A DNA stretch of 35,199 nt, from assembly GCA_031289165.1 (NCBI GenBank), contig JAITPZ010000183.1, positions 1 to 35,199 of the forward strand, read 5' to 3'. Below are positions 2,885 through 35,199 of this stretch, in pieces. The notes under the pieces were generated by a model. The model did not search any database and had not been told where the DNA came from. It was given only the letters and a program-made list of their open reading frames with translations. The position numbers were made by a program, and so were the translations under genes. Each line of letters starts with the position of its first letter. Position 1 is the first letter of the stretch. The DNA comes from Synergistaceae bacterium (GTDB lineage: Bacteria > Synergistota > Synergistia > Synergistales > Aminobacteriaceae).

Positions 2885-2987
2885 ATAGTGGTTTAAATTA
2901 AGTTTACTATAAGAGGCTAAAAGTTTTCCTCGACAGTGAGCCGTTTTCAGCTATTCTAACTTCAGGCTTTTTAATTGAATTCACTAT
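2885..2987 (+). repeat. MITE-like AT-rich hairpin repeat, copy A (103 bp)
   Basis: ATAGTGGTTTAAATTAA...TTAATTGAATTCACTAT forms a terminal inverted repeat matching at 13 of the first 17 positions. It contains the invariant core GACAGTGAGCCGTTTT (2932-2947). G+C is 33/103, against more than 60% in the flanks. It abuts the buk stop codon. Confidence 0.85.
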
Positions 2988-2988
2988 G

Positions 2989-4050
2989 TTACGCGCCGTA
3001 TTTTTTAGGTGTTTCGCGGTTCGTCAGGACGCGCCAGGCGCCCTCGGCCAGGGCCTGCATCTCGTCCTCGCCGGGATAGCGCAGGATGGGCGCGATGAAG
3101 CTCGTCCGGGATGTTATGCGTTCGCAAAGTTTGTCGCTGTAAGCCAGGCCGCCGGTCAGGACGATCGCGTCGAGCTCTCCCTTCAGGACGGCCGCGCAGC
3201 CCCCGATCTCCTTCGAAATTTGCAGGACCATGGCCTCGAACACGAGAACGGCTTTCGCGTCGCCGTTCGCGATGAGCTTCTCGACCTCGCGCATGTCGTT
3301 GGTCCCCAGATGCGCGACCAGTCCGCCCCGGCCGTTGATCATCTTCCCGATTTCCTGGCGGGTGTATCTGCCGCCGAAGCACAGATCGGCCACTCCGCCC
3401 ACCGGCAGGCTGCCCGCCCGCTCGGGCGACATCGGGCCCTCGCCGTCCAGGGCGTTGTTAACGTCGATGACGCGCCCTTTCGCGTGCGCCCCGACGGAAA
3501 CCCCGCCGCCCATGTGCGCGACGACGAGGTTGCACTCCTCGTAGTTCTTTTTCAGGTCGGCGGCCGCGCGGCGCGCCACGGCCTTCTGGTTGAGCGCGTG
3601 GAAGATGGAGAGGCGCGGAAGCTCCGGCAGGCCCGAGATTCGCGCCTCGTCCACCAGCTCGTCCACGACGACGGGATCGACGATGAAGGCCGGAATGTTC
3701 CCCGCGGCCGCCGCGAACCGGACGGCCAGCGGCGCTCCGAGGTTGCTGGCGTGAGCGGCATTTTTCAGGTCCTCCAGCATTTGGCCGCTGACGGTATACG
3801 TTCCGCTCTCTATGGGCTTCAGCAGTCCGCCGCGCCCCACGACGGCGGCGAAGTCCACGGGCTTCACCCCTTTGGCGTCGAGCGTCTTCGAGATTTCATC
3901 GAAGCGGAACTGCTCCTGGTCCATGACGTTGGCGTATCGAGCGAGGTCGGATGCTTCGTAACGCTGAGTTTCGGTCCACAGGCATTTCGTGTCCTCGAAA
4001 AGCGCGATCTTCGTACTCGTCGAGCCGGGGTTGATGGCAAAAATGTTCAT
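2989..4050 (-). CDS. buk: butyrate (branched-chain fatty acid) kinase, paralog 1
   Basis: 353-aa ORF with an N-terminal INPGSTSTK motif, plus VVGRGG, HMGGGVSVGAH and YPGEDEM motifs typical of butyrate kinase. AAAGGAGAG lies upstream of the ATG. Confidence 0.9.
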   Translation of the reverse strand: MNIFAINPGSTSTKIALFEDTKCLWTETQRYEASDLARYANVMDQEQFRFDEISKTLDAKGVKPVDFAAVVGRGGLLKPIESGTYTVSGQMLEDLKNAAHASNLGAPLAVRFAAAAGNIPAFIVDPVVVDELVDEARISGLPELPRLSIFHALNQKAVARRAAADLKKNYEECNLVVAHMGGGVSVGAHAKGRVIDVNNALDGEGPMSPERAGSLPVGGVADLCFGGRYTRQEIGKMINGRGGLVAHLGTNDMREVEKLIANGDAKAVLVFEAMVLQISKEIGGCAAVLKGELDAIVLTGGLAYSDKLCERITSRTSFIAPILRYPGEDEMQALAEGAWRVLTNRETPKKYGA

Positions 4051-4103
4051 CCCTCAAACTCTCCTTTCGTGTAAAAATTTCAGCATGAAAAGTCAGTATT
4101 GAT

Positions 4104-4131
4104 ACAAAAAGGGGAGATAACCGCTCTCCCC
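4104..4131 (-). terminator. rho-independent terminator after ptb
   Basis: Minus strand: GGGGAGA-gcggtta-TCTCCCC followed by TTTTTG, about 17 nt after the ptb stop. Confidence 0.55.
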
Positions 4132-4147
4132 GGGTTTTGCGCTGCCG

Positions 4148-5077
4148 TTACGCGTGATGGGCGATCATGACGCCCGCCGCGATGGAAAGCATCTTCGCGC
4201 GCGGGGAGTCCGCGCGGCTGGTCAGGATGACGGGCGCCGCGGCGCCAATGATGATTCCCGCAGTGTCGTTCTTCGAGAAGTAGACGATGGCCTTCGCGAG
4301 CATGTTCCCCGCGTCGATATGGGGAACGAGCAGAATATCCGCCTTTCCGGCGACGGGAGAGTCGATCTTCTTGATTTTGGCGGCCTCTTCATTTACGGCG
4401 TTATCGAGGGCCAGAGGGCCGTCCACGACGCAGTTTTTGATCTGCCCGCGCTGGCCCATCTGCACGAGCGCCGCGGCGTCGAGCGTACAGGGCATGTCCG
4501 GGTTGACGAGTTCCACGGCCGCGAGGCACGCGACCCTGGGGCACTCCACACCGAGCGCGCGGGCGAAGTTGACGGTGTTCTGAATGATATCGGCCTTCTG
4601 CTTCAGGTCGGGGTAGGTATTGAACGCCGCGTCGGCGACAAAAAGAATGCGGTCGTAGCCCTCGATCCCATGAAAGTAGCAGTGCGAGATGACCTTGCCG
4701 CTGCGGAGCCCGACCTCTTTGTTCAACATGCCGCGCAGGAAGTGGTCGGTGTGAAGCTGTCCCTTCATGTAGATGTCGGCGCGCTTCGAGGAAACCTCCG
4801 CCACGGCGACGAGGCCGCACTTCGCCTCGCTCTTCTCGTCGATGATCGTGTAATCGCCCTCTTTGGCCCCGGCCTCGGCGATGCAGGCTTTGACCCTTGT
4901 CGCGTCACCGACCAGCGTGGCCTCGACGAGTCCGGCTCTGCGCGCCTCCTCGACCGCCGAAATCAGGCCGACATCCTCCGCCATCGCGACGGAAACACGC
5001 TTTTTCCCCCTGGCCGCGCAAAGCTTTTTGGCCTCCTCGATCATCTGCGAAAGCGAACGAATCTGTTCCATATCCAA
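4148..5077 (-). CDS. ptb: phosphate butyryltransferase
   Basis: 309-aa ORF of the PTA/PTB family (GQLHTDHFLR, VADAAFN, ILTSRADS). Confidence 0.9.
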   Translation of the reverse strand: MDMEQIRSLSQMIEEAKKLCAARGKKRVSVAMAEDVGLISAVEEARRAGLVEATLVGDATRVKACIAEAGAKEGDYTIIDEKSEAKCGLVAVAEVSSKRADIYMKGQLHTDHFLRGMLNKEVGLRSGKVISHCYFHGIEGYDRILFVADAAFNTYPDLKQKADIIQNTVNFARALGVECPRVACLAAVELVNPDMPCTLDAAALVQMGQRGQIKNCVVDGPLALDNAVNEEAAKIKKIDSPVAGKADILLVPHIDAGNMLAKAIVYFSKNDTAGIIIGAAAPVILTSRADSPRAKMLSIAAGVMIAHHA

Positions 5078-5121
5078 AGACCTCCAAATATATTATTGTG
5101 TAGTTTATTTTTATTATTGCT

Positions 5122-6213
5122 TCAATTCTTCGGGGCGTAGTCCCCGTAGCTTTTGGGCTTTTCATCCTCGGCCAGGACGCGGAGAGCTCCCTCGGCCAGG
5201 GCCAGCATCTCGTCCTCGCCTGCGTAGACGAGGCAGGGGGCGATCCACTGCACGCGTTCCTGCACGAGGCGGACAAACTCGGAATCGTAGGAAATTCCGC
5301 CCGTGAAGAGGATCGCGTCGACCTTTTCCCCCACTGAAACGGCCTGAGCGCCGATCTCCTTCGCGACCTGCCAGGCCAGAGCACGGTAGACCAAGGCCGC
5401 CTTTTCGTCCCCCTTTTCGATCATGCCGCGGGCCTCGCGCATGTCGCTGGTTCCAAGATAAGCCAGAAGTCCCCCCCTGGCCACGATCTTTTGTCTGAAA
5501 CTCTCCTCGGTATACTGCCCGCCGAAACACAGATCCACCACCCCGCCGACGGGGAGGCCGCCGGTGCGCGAGGGGGAAAACGGTCCGAAGTCGGTGCCGT
5601 TGCTCGTGTCCGCGATGCGCCCTCTGCGGTGCGCCACGACGCTGATTCCCCCGCCCAGGTGGGCGACGACGACGCAGAGCTCGTCCCAGGGAACATTCAG
5701 GTCGCGAGCCGCGCGACGCACGGTGGCCTTGATGTTGAGCGCGTGCGAGAAGGACGCTTTCGGGAGATCGGGCAGTCCCGAAAGCCTGGCCTCCGGCATC
5801 ATTTCATCGACGCAGACGGGGTCCACGATAAAGGCAGGGACGCCCCACCGGGCGGCCAGCGCCTTCGCCAGCATTCCGCCGAGGTTCGAGGCGTGTTCCC
5901 AGGGTCTGCCGACCTTCAGGCGCTCGACGAGAAGGTCGTCCACCCGAAACGTTCCTCCGGGAAGGGGGTCGATGATGCCCCCTCGCCCGACGACGGCATC
6001 CGTGACCTCGGGGCACTCCTCGCAGGCGTGTTTGTCGACGACGTCCCGGATCGTGTTCAGCCTGAAATCGAACTGCTCCGTGACGGAACCGAAGGGCGCA
6101 AGCTCCTCGCCCGTATGCCGGATGGTCTCGTTCCAGATTATCGTCGTTCCGGAAAACTTCGCGACCTTCGTGCTTGTGGACCCCGGATTGACGGTTAAAA
6201 CCGAAAATGGCAT
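5122..6213 (-). CDS. buk: butyrate (branched-chain fatty acid) kinase, paralog 2
   Basis: 363-aa ORF with VNPGSTSTK, VVGRGG, HLGGGISVVAH and YAGEDEM motifs. It is clearly diverged from paralog 1. Confidence 0.9.
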   Translation of the reverse strand: MPFSVLTVNPGSTSTKVAKFSGTTIIWNETIRHTGEELAPFGSVTEQFDFRLNTIRDVVDKHACEECPEVTDAVVGRGGIIDPLPGGTFRVDDLLVERLKVGRPWEHASNLGGMLAKALAARWGVPAFIVDPVCVDEMMPEARLSGLPDLPKASFSHALNIKATVRRAARDLNVPWDELCVVVAHLGGGISVVAHRRGRIADTSNGTDFGPFSPSRTGGLPVGGVVDLCFGGQYTEESFRQKIVARGGLLAYLGTSDMREARGMIEKGDEKAALVYRALAWQVAKEIGAQAVSVGEKVDAILFTGGISYDSEFVRLVQERVQWIAPCLVYAGEDEMLALAEGALRVLAEDEKPKSYGDYAPKN

Positions 6214-14688: not shown

Positions 14689-15306
14689 ATGCACATCATG
14701 CAGACGTTCATGACCCTGATCAGGGACAGGGATACCGATGAGTACATCGAGTCGCTGCTTGCGTGTTTTGCCGCTCCGACAATCAGGGGCCTGAAGCCGG
14801 GGAGCCTGATCAACCTCTGCCGTCACGGGGACGACAATATCACCCTCGCCTGGCATTCCGAAAAGGAGGAGCTGCTCCGTAAATTTCGCCTGGAGGCGTT
14901 CACGTTTCCCCCTCGCCCGTCGTGCGACGCGTGGGAGCGAAACGCCGTGCTCGTTCTGCTGTACAGGAAGGAGCTTCTGGCCCGCGCGCTCTTCACGGAG
15001 GAGGCCGCCTCCATCCTGCGGCCTCTGGGATACGACCATCGCGCTTCCCGCGTGGAATCCTGCCTCGAACGCCTGGGGGAGCGTTTCAGGGAGAATTTTC
15101 CGCACGAGATCGGACTTTTTCTCGGCTATCCCCCGGAGGACGTGCGGGAGTTCATTCGCAATCGGGGCAGGGGCTGTCTTGCGACCGGATACTGGAAGGT
15201 TTACGGTGACGTGAGGGAAGCCAAACGCGCCTTTCAGCGGTTCAGGCGCGCGGAATACGACGCCGCGCGTTCCCTGATTCATGCCAAACTGAAATCAAAG
15301 TCATGA
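14689..15306 (+). CDS. DUF3793-family protein (function unknown)
   Basis: 205-aa ORF with KPGSLINL and HEIGLFLGYPPEDVREFI motifs that I recall as DUF3793. This family is commonly found next to flavodoxin in anaerobes. Confidence 0.7.
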   Translation: MHIMQTFMTLIRDRDTDEYIESLLACFAAPTIRGLKPGSLINLCRHGDDNITLAWHSEKEELLRKFRLEAFTFPPRPSCDAWERNAVLVLLYRKELLARALFTEEAASILRPLGYDHRASRVESCLERLGERFRENFPHEIGLFLGYPPEDVREFIRNRGRGCLATGYWKVYGDVREAKRAFQRFRRAEYDAARSLIHAKLKSKS

Positions 15307-15307
15307 T

Positions 15308-15411
15308 ATAGCGCTTTAACTTGAGTTTACTAATAGGAGGCTAAAAGTTTTCCTCGACAGTGAGCCGTTTTCAGCTGTTCTAACTTTAGACTTTTTACTT
15401 GAATTCACTAT
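15308..15411 (+). repeat. MITE-like AT-rich hairpin repeat, copy B (104 bp)
   Basis: ATAGCGCTTTAACTTGAG...ACTTGAATTCACTAT with the same invariant core GACAGTGAGCCGTTTT. It lies between the DUF3793 stop and the flavodoxin RBS. Confidence 0.85.
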
Positions 15412-15460
15412 ATCTCGTTCCGGCGGGTCCGGAAGAAAATTACACAGGGGAGGATTTTAC

Positions 15461-15889
15461 ATGTCCAAAATAATCGTTGTTTACTGGTCGGGCACGGGCA
15501 ACACCGAAAGGATGGCGGAACTGATCGCGCAGGGCGCGTCGGGCAGGGGGGCCGCCGTGACGCGCAAAAACGTCGGCGACACGAAGGTTTCGGAACTCGT
15601 CGAATACGACGTCGTCGCGCTTGGCTCCCCTTCCATGGGCGTCGAGACCATCGAAGAGGCCGAAATGGAGCCGTTCTTCGGGGAGGCCGCGTCTTCGCTG
15701 AAGGGGAAGAAAGTCGCCCTCTTCGGCTCCTATGGCTGGGGTAACGGAGAATGGCTGCGAACCTGGGCGGATCGCATGCGGGACGGCGGAGGGCAGCTCA
15801 TGGACGACGGGCTGGCCGTTCACGAAACGCCCGACGGCGACAGCGCCGCCCAATGTATCGCCTGGGGCGAAAAACTGGCCGCGTTTTAA
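15461..15889 (+). CDS. fldA: short-chain flavodoxin
   Basis: 142-aa ORF with the YWSGTGNTE FMN-phosphate loop and a FGSYGWG motif. AGGGGAGG lies upstream. Confidence 0.9.
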   Translation: MSKIIVVYWSGTGNTERMAELIAQGASGRGAAVTRKNVGDTKVSELVEYDVVALGSPSMGVETIEEAEMEPFFGEAASSLKGKKVALFGSYGWGNGEWLRTWADRMRDGGGQLMDDGLAVHETPDGDSAAQCIAWGEKLAAF

Positions 15890-24330: not shown

Positions 24331-24376
24331 CAGCATATCGCTGATGAAGAAGCGATTCATACGGTTCATTGCTTAT

Positions 24377-24420
24377 GGCTTTCAGCTATTCTGACTTTAA
24401 GCCTCTGAATTTTAAATTAT
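24377..24420 (+). repeat. degenerate partial copy (right half) of the MITE-like repeat
   Basis: TTTCAGCTATTCTGACTT matches the repeat core-to-right-arm region (compare copy D, TAGCTATTCTGACTTCAGG). The following CTTTAAGCCTCT is near-complementary to the left-arm AGAGGCTAAAAG. Confidence 0.45.
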
Positions 24421-24449
24421 CAGTTCAACAGGGGAGGTTTACCGCAGTT

Positions 24450-28176: not shown

Positions 28177-28376
28177 TCCCGACACCCCCGTTCCCATCCC
28201 GTCGGCAACATTATAGCGGCTCACGCCGTCTGAATCGAGGCTCGAAAATAAAAAAACGGCGCGCACGCGGCGGACGTGGCATTTTGAGGCCCCGGCTTCT
28301 TCTTTTTACGGCAATTTTGTAGTAAAATTTATGATAATTGGATTTAAGATCAGCACGTACGAAGGGAGTGCCCGAA

Positions 28377-29366
28377 ATGAACGTCGCATCGATGCTGTCC
28401 AGTGGATATCTGCAACCGGCGACCCCTGTGAAGCCCGCCGAAGTCGTGAACGCGCAACCCTCTTCTTCGCTGGCCCGGCAGGAGCAGCAGATTCTGGCGC
28501 AGGAGCGGGCGCTCGCGGCGGGCGGGGGGAGCGTATCCACCACCTATCGCTACACGGTCGGTCCCGACGGACGACGGTACATTACGGGCGCGGAGGTGAC
28601 GATCACCGGCGACGAGGGAATCATTGACGGAATCTCCGGCGGCGTGAAGCACGAGGAGCTGAGGCCGGTTGTAAAGGCCGTTTCGGAGGGCGCCGGACGG
28701 GGTGAAAGCACCACCCAAAGCGTGGGCGCCGGAAAGTCTGAGGCCGCTGACGCTCAAATCGCGGCTGCTCAAAGCGCCAACAGCCAGGTCGTCAATAAAC
28801 TGGAACAGACGGAGCGGGAGGTCGTCGCCCACGAGGCGGCGCACAAGGCCGCGGGCGGGCGTTTCGCCGGCGCGGCAAGTTACACGTACACCCAGGGCCC
28901 CGACGGCAGAAGCTACATCACGGGCGGCGAGGTGCCGATCAATGTTCCCGCGAGCGACGATCCTGAGGAAACGCTGCGCAACATGGAGCAGGTGGTTCGG
29001 GCGGCTCTGGCGCCGGGCAGCCCATCCGGGCAGGATCTGAGCGTTGCGGCGTCGGCGGCTGCCGCGGCCGCACAGGCGCGTCAGCAGATCGCCCGGCAAA
29101 ACGGACAGGACGCCGCCGACAGCAGGGACGCGAGCTCTGAGGACGCACTGAAAACAGGCGCCGCCTCCATACAGGCAGACATCCGCTTCGAGCGGATCCG
29201 CTCCGGCGACGAGGCGGACACGGAGAACACGAACCCGGTCGAGCCGGAGGAAATCCGGGACGCCTACGCCCGCACCGCATCGAAACACGGCATGTGGGCG
29301 CTTGGACGGGGCTTCGAGCCGGAGACGGCCGACGACGAAACGAACCGCCTGGACGTCGCCGCCTGA
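28377..29366 (+). CDS. SprA-related family protein (putative HExxH metalloprotein) with an internal duplication
   Basis: VVAHEAAHKAAGG followed by YTYTQGPDGRSYITGGEVPI matches my recollection of the SprA-related family. The ATG at 28377 has GAAGGGA upstream. The tail is low-complexity and acidic or Ala-rich. Confidence 0.6.
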   Translation: MNVASMLSSGYLQPATPVKPAEVVNAQPSSSLARQEQQILAQERALAAGGGSVSTTYRYTVGPDGRRYITGAEVTITGDEGIIDGISGGVKHEELRPVVKAVSEGAGRGESTTQSVGAGKSEAADAQIAAAQSANSQVVNKLEQTEREVVAHEAAHKAAGGRFAGAASYTYTQGPDGRSYITGGEVPINVPASDDPEETLRNMEQVVRAALAPGSPSGQDLSVAASAAAAAAQARQQIARQNGQDAADSRDASSEDALKTGAASIQADIRFERIRSGDEADTENTNPVEPEEIRDAYARTASKHGMWALGRGFEPETADDETNRLDVAA

Positions 29367-29393
29367 CGAGGTACATGATTTCTACCGGCTTTT

Positions 29394-29496
29394 ATAGGAA
29401 TTCGAGTAAAAAGCCTAAAGTTTAGAATAACTAAAAACGGCTCACTGTCAGGGAAAACTCTTAGCCTCTTACAGTAAACTTAAGTTAAACCACTTT
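29394..29496 (-). repeat. MITE-like AT-rich hairpin repeat, copy C (103 bp, inverted orientation)
   Basis: The reverse complement reads AAAGTGGTTTAACTTAAG...GACAGTGAGCCGTTTT...ACTCGAATTCCTAT. It lies between the convergent SprA-related and MATE genes. Confidence 0.85.
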
Positions 29497-29567
29497 AACT
29501 GTTCCAGCTTCATAATCACACAGGACACCCGGATTCTTTACGCCATCTGCATTGATGATGGAACCGT

Positions 29568-30941
29568 TCACTCTTTTTTTATTTCCCTCTGTATTTTTTT
29601 CATCATGTATACGAAGCACACCCAGGCGACGCCGGCCCCGAGCGCCCAGGAGACGGGCTGGAACCACCATATGCCCCGTTCGCCCAGCCGCCAGGCGAAA
29701 AAATGCACCGCCGGGATGCGTCCCAGAACCGAGCGCATGAGCTGCGCGGCCGTCCCGAAAGCGGAGCGGCCCGTCGCGACGAACGCCGAGCTCAGCACGA
29801 CCTGCGTGATCACCATCGGGTAGGCGATCATGCTGATGCGGATGGACCGCACCGCGAGGTCCATCACCCGCTCCGAAGGTCGAAAAAGCCCCAGCGGCGC
29901 GTGGGGAAAGACGAAGATGAAAAAGCCGATGACCGTCATCATGACGCCCGAAATCCACGCGGCGGCCTTTATCCCCTCCATCATGCGCGCCAGGTCACGC
30001 CGCCCGTAGTTGAACGCCAGAAACGGCATCAGGGCCGAACCCACCCCCATCGAGACGGTGAAGTAAAAATCCTCCACGCGAATGGCCAGCATCCAAGCCG
30101 CGACCGCGTGGTGCCCGAAAGACGCGAGGACACGATTCACGGCCCCGAAGCCGAGCGCGATGCTGCCGACCGAGAGCGTGACGGGAAGACCGATGACGGT
30201 TATCGGCCTCCAGTGCCGGAACAGGGCCGGACGGGGAAACGGCAGGAGGGGCAGGGAGAAGCCGGCGTTGGACTTCATCCTGCGATGGATCCAGACCACC
30301 GCGAAAACGCGCCCGACGAAGGTCGCCGCGGCCGCCCCGCCCACGCCCCACCCGAAGACGAAGATGAAGATCGGATCGAGGACGCCGTTCACCAGGTTGG
30401 CGATTCCCATGCAGATCAGGGGCGTCACCGTATCGCCCTGACAGCGGAAAATGCTGTTCGCAACGTAGGTGTAGACGATCAGCGGCGCCGTCAGGGGCAG
30501 CCACATGTTGTAGCCGTAGCTCATTTTCAGAATTTCCGCGTTCCCCGACGCGCCCAGCCGGTCGAACACGGCGGCCGAGACGGAGGGAGAGAGCATGGGA
30601 AGCATCATGAGGGAAAGGAGATAGCCCAGCAGCAGGCTCGAAAGCGCCACCCCGCGGGCCGTCGCCGCGTCGCCGCGCCCCAGATTCTGCCCGATCAGAG
30701 CGGTGGCCCCCCCCGCGACGCCCTCAATCAGGGCGAACAGCGTGATGTTCACCGGAAAGGTCAGCGAAACGGCGGCCGTGGGGAGCTCCCCCAGCCACGA
30801 TATGAATACCGTATCCACCATAAAAAACAGCGTGTTCAGAAGCATCATGCCGATGGCGGGCAGCGACATCTGCAAAAGGATCAGGCCGACCGATCCCTCG
30901 CCGAGGTTCCCGGGCTTCGACAGGTAATTTTTAAGGCGCAT
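29568..30941 (-). CDS. MATE-family efflux transporter
   Basis: About 457-aa polytopic ORF (12 TM) with an N-terminus typical of MATE (LLQMSLPAIGMMLLNTLFFMVDTVFISWLG). The ATG at 30941 has AAGGAGAG upstream. The longer ORF-track start at 31061 is rejected. Confidence 0.85.
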   Translation of the reverse strand: MRLKNYLSKPGNLGEGSVGLILLQMSLPAIGMMLLNTLFFMVDTVFISWLGELPTAAVSLTFPVNITLFALIEGVAGGATALIGQNLGRGDAATARGVALSSLLLGYLLSLMMLPMLSPSVSAAVFDRLGASGNAEILKMSYGYNMWLPLTAPLIVYTYVANSIFRCQGDTVTPLICMGIANLVNGVLDPIFIFVFGWGVGGAAAATFVGRVFAVVWIHRRMKSNAGFSLPLLPFPRPALFRHWRPITVIGLPVTLSVGSIALGFGAVNRVLASFGHHAVAAWMLAIRVEDFYFTVSMGVGSALMPFLAFNYGRRDLARMMEGIKAAAWISGVMMTVIGFFIFVFPHAPLGLFRPSERVMDLAVRSIRISMIAYPMVITQVVLSSAFVATGRSAFGTAAQLMRSVLGRIPAVHFFAWRLGERGIWWFQPVSWALGAGVAWVCFVYMMKKIQREIKKE

Positions 30942-31076
30942 ATGAAAATACTCTCCTTCAGAATTCGGGCCGACGAGCGGTTTTCGACCGGCGCACGGTA
31001 CAGGCATTATCTCATATGTGATGAAAACGCCCACCCGCCATCCTGTCCCGTTAAAAATCATGTCGTTGTAATTTTC

Positions 31077-31105
31077 TTGACAGACAGCGTCCCGCAGATT
31101 AGGAT
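31077..31105 (+). promoter_or_regulatory. candidate sigma70-type promoter upstream of repeat copy D and the DtxR-family gene
   Basis: TTGACA (31077-31082), a 17-nt spacer, then TAGGAT (31100-31105). Confidence 0.35.
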
Positions 31106-31138
31106 TTGAACAGGTCCAGGATTCGATATCGGAATGTT

Positions 31139-31241
31139 ATGGCGGTTTAACTTAAGTTTACTATATGAGGTTAAAAGTTTTTCTTGACAGTGAGCCGTTT
31201 TTAGCTATTCTGACTTCAGGCTTTTTACTTGAATTCACTAT
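31139..31241 (+). repeat. MITE-like AT-rich hairpin repeat, copy D (103 bp)
   Basis: ATGGCGGTTTAACTTAAG...TTGACAGTGAGCCGTTTTTAGCTATTCT...ACTTGAATTCACTAT. It lies between the divergent MATE and DtxR-family genes and carries an internal TTGACA-16-TATTCT (31184-31211). Confidence 0.85.
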
Positions 31242-31331
31242 AACGGCAATTTCAGTTTGGAAAATAAAGATTCAAAAAATCTGCCATGGTGGACGCGGGC
31301 TGGCCCGGATGGGCCGACAGGAGAATTGTTG

Positions 31332-31994
31332 ATGATAACAGCGCGCATTGAGGACTATCTTGAAGAAATTTTCCTTCTGGAATGTACCGGGCACGAAATC
31401 ACCGTCACCGACCTCGCCGAGCGGCTGGGCATAACCAAGGGCACGGTCACGGCCACCGTGCAGAAGCTGGTCGACGCGGAGATGCTGACGCACGAGCGCT
31501 ACGGCGCCCTTCATCTCACCAGGGAGGGAAGGCGCAAGGGGCTCATGGTGTATCGCCGTCACGAGGGGTTGCGCGCCTTTTTTCACGAACTGCTGGGCGT
31601 GGACAGAGACCGCTCGTCCGAAATGGCCTGCAGCATGGAACACTACATGGACCCCGTCACGGACGACCGTCTCTTCGCCATGCTCGAGTTTTTCCGGCGC
31701 GCCCGCGCCGAGCGAGCGCCTTGGGTGGATGAAATGTTCGCCGCCATGGAGACTCGCGTGGACCTCTCCAGCCCCCTTTCCGTTCTGGAAACCGGCGAGA
31801 AGGGGACGGTCGTGCGCCTTTCCGCTGACGAGGGACTCCGCAAAAAACTCCAAAACCAGGGCTTCACCACGGGCGTGTGCGTGACGTGCCTCGACGCGTC
31901 GGTCGAGGACTCCGTGACGGTTTCGCTCGACGGACGCTCCTTCGCGATGCCGCGCGACGAGACCGCGACCGTCTGGCTTCGCCCCGTATTTTAA
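31332..31994 (+). CDS. DtxR/MntR-family metal-dependent regulator with a C-terminal FeoA/SH3-like domain
   Basis: Begins MITARIEDYLEEI, with the HTH TVTDLAERLGITKGTVTATVQKL, a dimerisation region and a C-terminal GEKGTVVRL...G FeoA-like segment. The ATG at 31332 has AGGAGA upstream. Confidence 0.85.
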   Translation: MITARIEDYLEEIFLLECTGHEITVTDLAERLGITKGTVTATVQKLVDAEMLTHERYGALHLTREGRRKGLMVYRRHEGLRAFFHELLGVDRDRSSEMACSMEHYMDPVTDDRLFAMLEFFRRARAERAPWVDEMFAAMETRVDLSSPLSVLETGEKGTVVRLSADEGLRKKLQNQGFTTGVCVTCLDASVEDSVTVSLDGRSFAMPRDETATVWLRPVF

Positions 31995-35044: not shown

Positions 35045-35199
35045 TTGAACGGTTACGAAGAATCAAAGAAGGGCGTTGATATATGGGCAGGAGTCGATGT
35101 CCACAAGACGAGTTACGCTGTGAGCGTGTTGAGCGGCAACGGGATTCGTCATAGTTTCACTACCTCCACGGATTGAGGCCCAATACGGAGAAATGATCG
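35045..35199 (+). mobile_element. IS110-family (DEDD) transposase N-terminal fragment. It is disrupted and runs off the window.
   Basis: The translation ...WAGVDVHKTSYAVSVLSGNGIRHSFTTSTD then stop (35174-35176) carries the G(I/V)DVHK signature of IS110 DEDD transposases. A GAAGGG-9 nt-ATG at 35083 is one base out of frame at a GGG run. Confidence 0.6.

Follow-up and report, generated by a model that had tools for sequence, protein, structure and literature searches.

The question raised by this locus is what kind of sequence an AT-rich segment of little more than 100 bp represents, and how it came to occupy four separate intergenic spacers of a Synergistaceae contig of much higher G+C content. 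The window, by which we mean the whole 35,199-nucleotide stretch of DNA that was analysed and which makes up a complete contig of an uncultured member of the Synergistaceae, had been read earlier as carrying an undescribed MITE-like element. In our assessment the four copies are most probably insertions of a non-autonomous element with terminal inverted repeats (TIRs), a MITE, which would have been mobilised in trans and directed to TA dinucleotides. The family is new at the sequence level and lineage-restricted; the kind of element, a MITE, is well known.

Alignment, HMM and BLAST comparisons of the window yielded four full-length copies of 105-106 bp distributed over 28 kb, with nhmmer E-values of 2e-30 to 3e-33 and pairwise identities of 83-90%, and the positions given in the original prediction proved right to within 1 nt. 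Copy A (2884-2988, + strand, 105 bp) is the best preserved, with 3 differences from the consensus and ends TATAGTGG...CACTATG, and it separates the stop codon of an acetate/butyrate-kinase-like gene (2989-4050, - strand) from an Ldh_2 gene (1668-2768, - strand). Copy B (15307-15412, + strand, 106 bp, 8 differences) follows directly after the TGA stop codon of a DUF3793 gene (14689-15306, + strand) and ends 48 nt upstream of a flavodoxin start codon at 15461 (+ strand). The most diverged, copy C (29393-29497, - strand, 105 bp, 12 differences), carries a 1-nt deletion in its right terminus and occupies the convergent spacer between a SprA-related gene (28338-29366, + strand) and MatE (29568-30941, - strand). 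Copy D (31138-31242, + strand, 105 bp, 8 differences) is located in the divergent spacer between MatE (- strand) and a DtxR-family/FeoA gene (31257-31994, + strand), which is followed by FeoB.

All four copies are intergenic, both strands are used and their orientation relative to the neighbouring genes is mixed, in line with what had been predicted. Their G+C content of 32-35% is low compared with the 59.7% of the whole contig; here the earlier description held for the element, and the window itself falls marginally below, rather than above, 60%. At all eight junctions the flanking sequences are mutually unrelated and homology ends abruptly at TA...TA. The 16-mer GACAGTGAGCCGTTTT, which had been singled out as invariant, does occur four times exactly in the window, but with 82 of the 108 alignment columns invariant a run of at least 16 such columns carries P=0.22 and is not significant. 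The element contains no ORF, and an unsupported long ORF (29485-29958) overlaps copy C by 13 nt.

The ends of the element are well defined. It consists of about 103 bp with a flanking TA on each side and has imperfect short TIRs, TATAGTGGTTTAAC... and ...TTGAATTCACTATA. In the consensus the termini TATAGTG...CACTATA form a perfect run of 7 nt, and the TIR matches at 13 of 18 positions (P of about 1e-4 relative to shuffled sequences); the inverted repeat of copy A, previously counted as 13 of 17 matches, gives 14 of 17 by the present count and is real. TA is present at seven of the eight ends, the remaining one, in copy A, being CA/TG. The TIRs of copies B, C and D are degraded, and the mutated termini among the copies include TATAGCGC, TATGGCGG and TAAAGTGG in addition to the deletion in copy C. 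The terminal TA followed by YAGTG resembles the ends of Tc1-type elements (TA|CAGTG). An alignment of the ends revealed no conserved tetra- or pentanucleotide target fixed on one side only.

A further suggestion, that the arms continue into a long imperfect palindrome, was not borne out. Complementarity of the arms falls to chance level beyond about 18 nt, and the DNA and RNA folding energies of both strands are no better than those of shuffled sequences (z -2.0 to +1.3); a long palindrome or hairpin was accordingly rejected.

Evidence for insertion came from the orthologous spacers of related Synergistaceae, the closest available relatives. The nearest of them, on short metagenomic contigs, have proteins 81-90% identical to those of the window, and over all relatives with empty sites the range is 77-90%. 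This comparison covers copies A, B and C; in the neighbourhood of copy D, locus L009 shares only the native promoter and locus L013 stops 40 bp short. At the site of copy A, locus L029 (Ldh_2 90% identical, third-codon identity 75%) aligns with the window on both flanks and the element is precisely missing. One flank comprises the kinase C-terminus with its stop codon; the other consists of T-rich sequence and, beyond it, a G+C-rich double-hairpin repeat. In-silico excision of copy A raised the global alignment score against L029 from 11.5 to about 44. The L029 junction reads TAAGGTATTTCGC, with a single TA, and the corresponding sequence of the window is TAA-CA[element]TA-TCTCTG. In locus L030 the genes kinase-PTA-kinase-Ldh_2 are contiguous, with a spacer of only 14 bp between the last kinase gene and Ldh_2, and copy A therefore constitutes an intercistronic insertion in an operon.

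For copy B, the gene order DUF3793-flavodoxin-Hpt-YgjP-ROK is retained in loci L026 and L027. The DUF3793/flavodoxin spacer, 154 bp long in the window, measures 100 and 65 bp in these two loci, respectively. The right flank of copy B, TCTCGTTCCGGCGGGTCCGGAAGAAAAT, aligns with L027 up to the boundary of the element, and excision with one TA retained produced a gap-free junction, while removal of both TAs left a gap of 2 nt. The spacer that holds copy C in the window lacks it in L013 (MatE 89% identical) and contains a G+C-rich hairpin repeat instead. Over the approximately 105 kb of related Synergistaceae loci compared, no copy was detected, apart from one partial, diverged relative that precedes MatE in L013.

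The spacers orthologous to those of copies A, B and C are thus empty, a TA sits at the A and B junctions and the alignments for these two copies break at the TIR ends, all of which lends support to the earlier view that this is a small non-autonomous mobile element. Together, the TA found at seven of eight ends and the empty sites favour insertion into a TA with duplication of that dinucleotide, judging from the sequence comparisons. A TA-type duplication had been raised as one possibility, and it agrees with the terminal TAs and with the single TA in L029, although three models of the duplication at copy A scored almost equally against L029 (43.5, 44.0 and 44.5), the relatives being too distant, and small indels too close to the junctions, for it to be defined to the nucleotide.

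A mechanism can be proposed in which a transposase supplied in trans, and encoded elsewhere than on this contig, would bind the approximately 16-nt termini and move the element by cut-and-paste into TA dinucleotides of the AT-richer intergenic DNA, with duplication of the TA. Such chemistry would correspond to that of the IS630/Tc1-mariner-type transposases and to that described for the Correia elements of Neisseria. The copies, which carry 3 to 12 changes from the consensus, are of staggered age, and each insertion would, as a by-product, introduce AT-rich DNA bearing a sigma-70-like promoter directed rightward, the best example being that of copy D.

The putative promoter lies centrally in the element. 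A site of the form (T/C)(T/C)GACA-N16-TATTCT, which matches the sigma-70 consensus, is predicted in copies A, C and D and is missing from copy B, in which the -10 hexamer is degraded to TGTTCT. In copy A it extends over 2930-2957 (+ strand) as TCGACA-N16-TATTCT, a consensus match directed towards the right end of the element; the equivalent site of copy C is at 29451-29424 (- strand), and that of copy D, TTGACA-N16-TATTCT at 31184-31211 (+ strand), is the best of the copies. Promoter-like hexamers had been noted on both strands. The forward ones are present in these three copies; the reverse TAGAAT is merely the complement of ATTCTA and the scan called no reverse promoter. The rightward direction faces flavodoxin in copy B and DtxR/FeoA-FeoB in copy D, and runs antisense into a neighbouring gene in copies A and C. 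No terminator was found within the element in the promoter and terminator scan.

The DtxR-family/FeoA gene has a native promoter at 31077-31105 (TTGACA-17-TAGGAT) that is conserved in L009, and copy D lies in the interval between the two; in L009 a tandem GATTGAAGCAGATTGGAATTGAAG repeat is found in the leader instead. Insertions that interrupt an operon, or that separate an iron-regulator/FeoB operon from a native promoter, may alter expression of the genes concerned.

These locations raise an alternative in which the repeat is a regulatory module of the host, a promoter or operator cassette of a regulon, for example an iron-responsive one, that is kept by selection. Copy B immediately precedes the flavodoxin gene and copy D the DtxR-family/FeoA-FeoB operon, each facing the gene or operon in question, and two of four copies upstream of iron-related genes leave some room for a selected role; three copies share the TTGACA-like -35 and TATTCT -10 hexamers at a 16-nt spacing, and the partial relative at 24349-24425 is positioned upstream of RecQ in the same sense. 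Nevertheless, we regard this explanation as improbable. Copy C occupies a convergent spacer, copy A is placed antisense between two co-transcribed genes, the flavodoxin copy B is the very one with the degraded -10, and relatives with the same gene order are entirely without the element. Moreover, homology continues for about 50 nt beyond the promoter on each side, as far as the TA-flanked inverted-repeat ends, and this is unneeded for a promoter. Inspection of the element by eye gave no convincing match to a DtxR/IdeR or Fur operator.

As a small intergenic sequence that encodes no transposase, the element would also fit a hairpin-dependent derivative of a single-strand transposon, either a PATE of the IS200/IS605 type or a REPIN mobilised by RAYT, and such elements are common in bacteria (10.1101/2021.07.10.451892). 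They require stable subterminal hairpins, however, and neither strand of the element folds better than its shuffled controls; in addition the element has true TIRs with TA at both ends and lacks the conserved one-sided tetra- or pentanucleotide target, and we consider such an origin very unlikely.

A multi-copy small-RNA gene, some other structured RNA or a recombination site is a highly improbable explanation. The internal promoter-like site is compatible with a small-RNA gene, and Correia copies of Neisseria do yield small transcripts (PMC3184786). However, the element showed no Rfam match at E<=1, it has no internal terminator and no significant fold on either strand, and a transcript starting at the predicted promoter would extend for only about 25 nt before passing out of the element into unrelated flanks.

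Finally, segmental duplication or mis-assembly of the metagenomic contig might be invoked in that every known copy is on this one contig and none was found elsewhere, but it is scarcely credible in the face of unrelated flanks at all eight junctions, differences of 10-17% between the copies, flanking genes that keep the synteny of the relatives and an independent assembly, the Logan contig L001 (SRR14710897), which reproduces the right two-thirds of copy B together with its flank.

The L001 contig, which covers the flavodoxin locus, starts inside copy B. This break was considered as a possible sign of additional copies and was rejected as such, given that the copies of the window share exact stretches of more than 31 nt, which alone are enough to break a de Bruijn assembly within copy B. 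A second candidate that we rejected was a composite transposon with MatE as cargo and, as its ends, copies C and D (29393-31242), which are inverted relative to one another and 1.64 kb apart: MatE keeps its SprA-related neighbour in locus L014 and therefore appears to be resident. The proteins of the window have their closest matches in MAGs annotated as Synergistaceae, with MatE 72-74% identical to that of the Kf353 bins.

The insertion of a MITE into TA sites thus remains the preferred explanation, and the divergence of the copies gives some indication of when it may have occurred. Since the copies differ from the consensus at 3 to 12 positions and third-codon positions are 75-83% identical with those of the nearest relative, the insertions do not appear to be very recent, and they are compatible with events that took place at different times after the split from that relative. 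Several termini are mutated, and most copies are therefore probably no longer mobile. The original prediction of a recently active family finds no support in these values or in the degraded terminal repeats.

The closest parallel that we found for the termini is provided by the Correia elements (CREE, also NEMIS), which are reported only from Neisseria, carry sigma-70 promoters and are moved by an enzyme that is not known (PMC2649163). Most CREEs are 153-157 or 104-108 bp in length and they are inserted at TA, or sometimes CA, sites (PMC2649163); published variants of their repeat begin with TATAGTGGATTAAC... and TATAGTGGATTAAATTTAAA... (PMC9778887, PMC5039591). For comparison we employed genuine CREEs from a gonococcal chromosome and from Neisseria prophage contigs, among them copies of 154-156 bp and four of 106-107 bp. 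The chromosomal examples came from PLSDB entries NZ_CP119142.1 and NZ_CP119140.1 (L028), which are labelled plasmids and are in fact 2.17-Mb Neisseria gonorrhoeae chromosomes.

The left end of the element consensus, TATAGTGGTTTAACTT, equals the gonococcal CREE end TATAGTGGATTAACTT at 15 of 16 positions, and both ends of the element match published repeat variants at 16 of 20; the chance of at least 12 matches in 13 is about 1.5e-6 at this composition. The likeness extends to size, with 105-106 bp for the element and 104-108 bp for the shorter CREE class, to terminal TAs that are occasionally replaced by CA, and to the degraded terminal variants TATGGCGG, TATAGCGG and CATAG..., which are common to both families. 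The two families alike occupy intergenic or intercistronic positions and contain sigma-70-like promoter sequences, and neither has a known transposase partner.

In contrast, the interiors are unrelated: relative to interior-shuffled controls, local alignments gave P=0.77-0.85 and global alignments 0.05-0.89. The 26-bp Correia repeat (TATAGTGGATTAAC/AAAT...) is matched only over its first 13-16 nt, and positions 17-26 differ in the element. Whereas genuine CREEs have TIRs with 19-25 matches in 30 and the four of 106-107 bp show RNA folding z-scores of -4.7 to -9.9, the corresponding values are 16 of 30 for the element and -0.8 for its consensus, and with such weak folding no hairpin substrate for RNase III is expected. 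The CREEs have about 41-42% G+C and the element 32-35% in a host of 60%; the CREE promoters are at the ends and that predicted for the element is central; and, while CREEs are reported only from Neisseria (PMC2649163), the element resides in a member of the Synergistota. Differing in core, TIR length and folding, it falls outside the Correia sequence family.

It is possible, if doubtful at present, that the shared termini, length class and TA target are not coincidental and that homologous transposases recognise both the Synergistota element and the Correia elements. Were this the case, Correia-type MITEs would constitute a class that crosses phyla, and the complete genomes of this Synergistaceae lineage, or of its neighbours in the gut, could hold the autonomous partner. 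Given that the mover of the Correia elements has not been known since the 1980s (PMC2649163), the element would provide an independent handle on the transposase if a full-length partner were found.

Other families of small repeats show some of the same properties. RUP elements duplicate a TA target. RUP of Streptococcus pneumoniae is 107 bp in length and ERIC of the Enterobacteriaceae about 127 bp, and ERIC-type elements have TA at both termini (PMC3184786). Both resemble the element in length, TIRs, intergenic location and dependence on a transposase acting in trans, but they fold into long hairpins, which it does not. For MITEs of the IS630/Tc1-mariner group as a model, neither an IS630-family transposase nor a full-length IS with the element's ends was found. 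The REP and REPIN sequences mobilised by RAYT are likewise short, abundant, intergenic and non-coding; REPINs are G+C-rich paired hairpins without any logic of TA or TIR (10.1101/2021.07.10.451892), in contrast to the AT-rich and unstructured element. MITEs are common, and one more family restricted to a single lineage, here that of an uncultured bacterium of the gut, alters little by itself.

Searches for further members support the description of the sequence family as undescribed, with the reservation that its termini are nearly those of Correia elements. No Rfam family matched the element, whether the cut-off was the gathering threshold or E<=1, and BLAST of the consensus against plasmid and phage collections produced no match. 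A 26-nt core pattern was absent from the GTDB-representative genomes and JGI metagenomes scanned. A degenerate pattern accommodating all copies and the L013 variant had 8 matches in metagenomes, all of them chance matches confined to the pattern, and six matches to the 16-mer in viral contigs were also due to chance. The known copies are only the four described here, all on one metagenome-derived contig.

Neither an autonomous element nor a transposase bearing these ends was detected in the window, as had been predicted, or in the relative loci fetched and the viral contigs, and the terminal motif occurs nowhere else in the window or loci. A viral scan with the terminal 16-mer shared with the Correia elements returned more than 120 single matches, approximately the chance level, and where two matches formed an inverted pair, this was a genuine Neisseria CREE or a product of chance, as with one pair inside a 2021-aa ORF in L088. 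An IS110 reported at the right edge of the window was not confirmed. The end of the contig (34800-35199) consists of an AT-rich non-coding stretch (35% G+C) followed by a short ORF, GVDVHKTSYAVSVLSGNGIRHSFTTSTD*, at 35090-35176, which encodes 28 aa without a Pfam match; by eye it is similar to the N-terminus of IS110-family proteins and it is unlike the repeat.

Two observations concern the genes around copies A and B. The acetate/butyrate-kinase-like gene next to copy A has a paralogue (5122-6213), the two being about 73% identical over a 101-nt stretch; the pair (2989-6213) flanks a PTA_PTB gene and precedes Ldh_2, and L030 has this operon of four genes as well. Close upstream of the ribosome-binding site of the flavodoxin gene there is a hairpin, TTCCGG-N5-CCGGAA, at about 15419-15435 in the window and about 6150-6170 in L027, of which the stem is kept while the loop differs, and it could represent a conserved regulatory or terminator structure.

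In addition to the full copies, two fragments had been predicted. The HMM and BLAST searches of the window gave instead a single weak partial match at 24378-24411 (81% over 32 nt, E=0.013), which, from its sequence, seems more like a diverged relative than a piece of this subfamily. It belongs to a segment at 24349-24425 (+ strand, nhmmer E=0.013) that is related to the right half of the element, lies directly upstream of RecQ and is designated type 2. A second type 2 sequence is the partial copy upstream of MatE in L013 (positions 1-95), which differs in place and orientation from copy D. The two share TTTCAGCTATTCTGACTTTAAG, ATTCATACGG and TTTYAGCTRTTCTGA as well as the variant CTCTG..TTTTAAATT, which is missing from the four full copies. 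Type 2 sequences may have been left by an older subfamily or may reflect a shared promoter module.

The window also carries a second small repeat, a G+C-rich double-hairpin unit of about 57 nt with the arrangement GGGATC-hairpin-GCGrGGTTT-GGGGCnnnGCCCC-AAG..TCTTT. It is located at 2812-2870 in the window, 13 nt from copy A, where it is orthologous in L029 (about 150-205), and also at about 1596-1650 in L013 and 2263-2325 in L026. The unit, which looks like a REP-like sequence or a bidirectional terminator, is more REP-like than the AT-rich element. In a relative, its paralogues fill the MatE/SprA and DUF3793/flavodoxin spacers that hold the AT-rich element in the window, and small repeats thus turn over in the Synergistaceae such that the same spacers carry, depending on the species, either the AT-rich element or the G+C-rich hairpin repeat.
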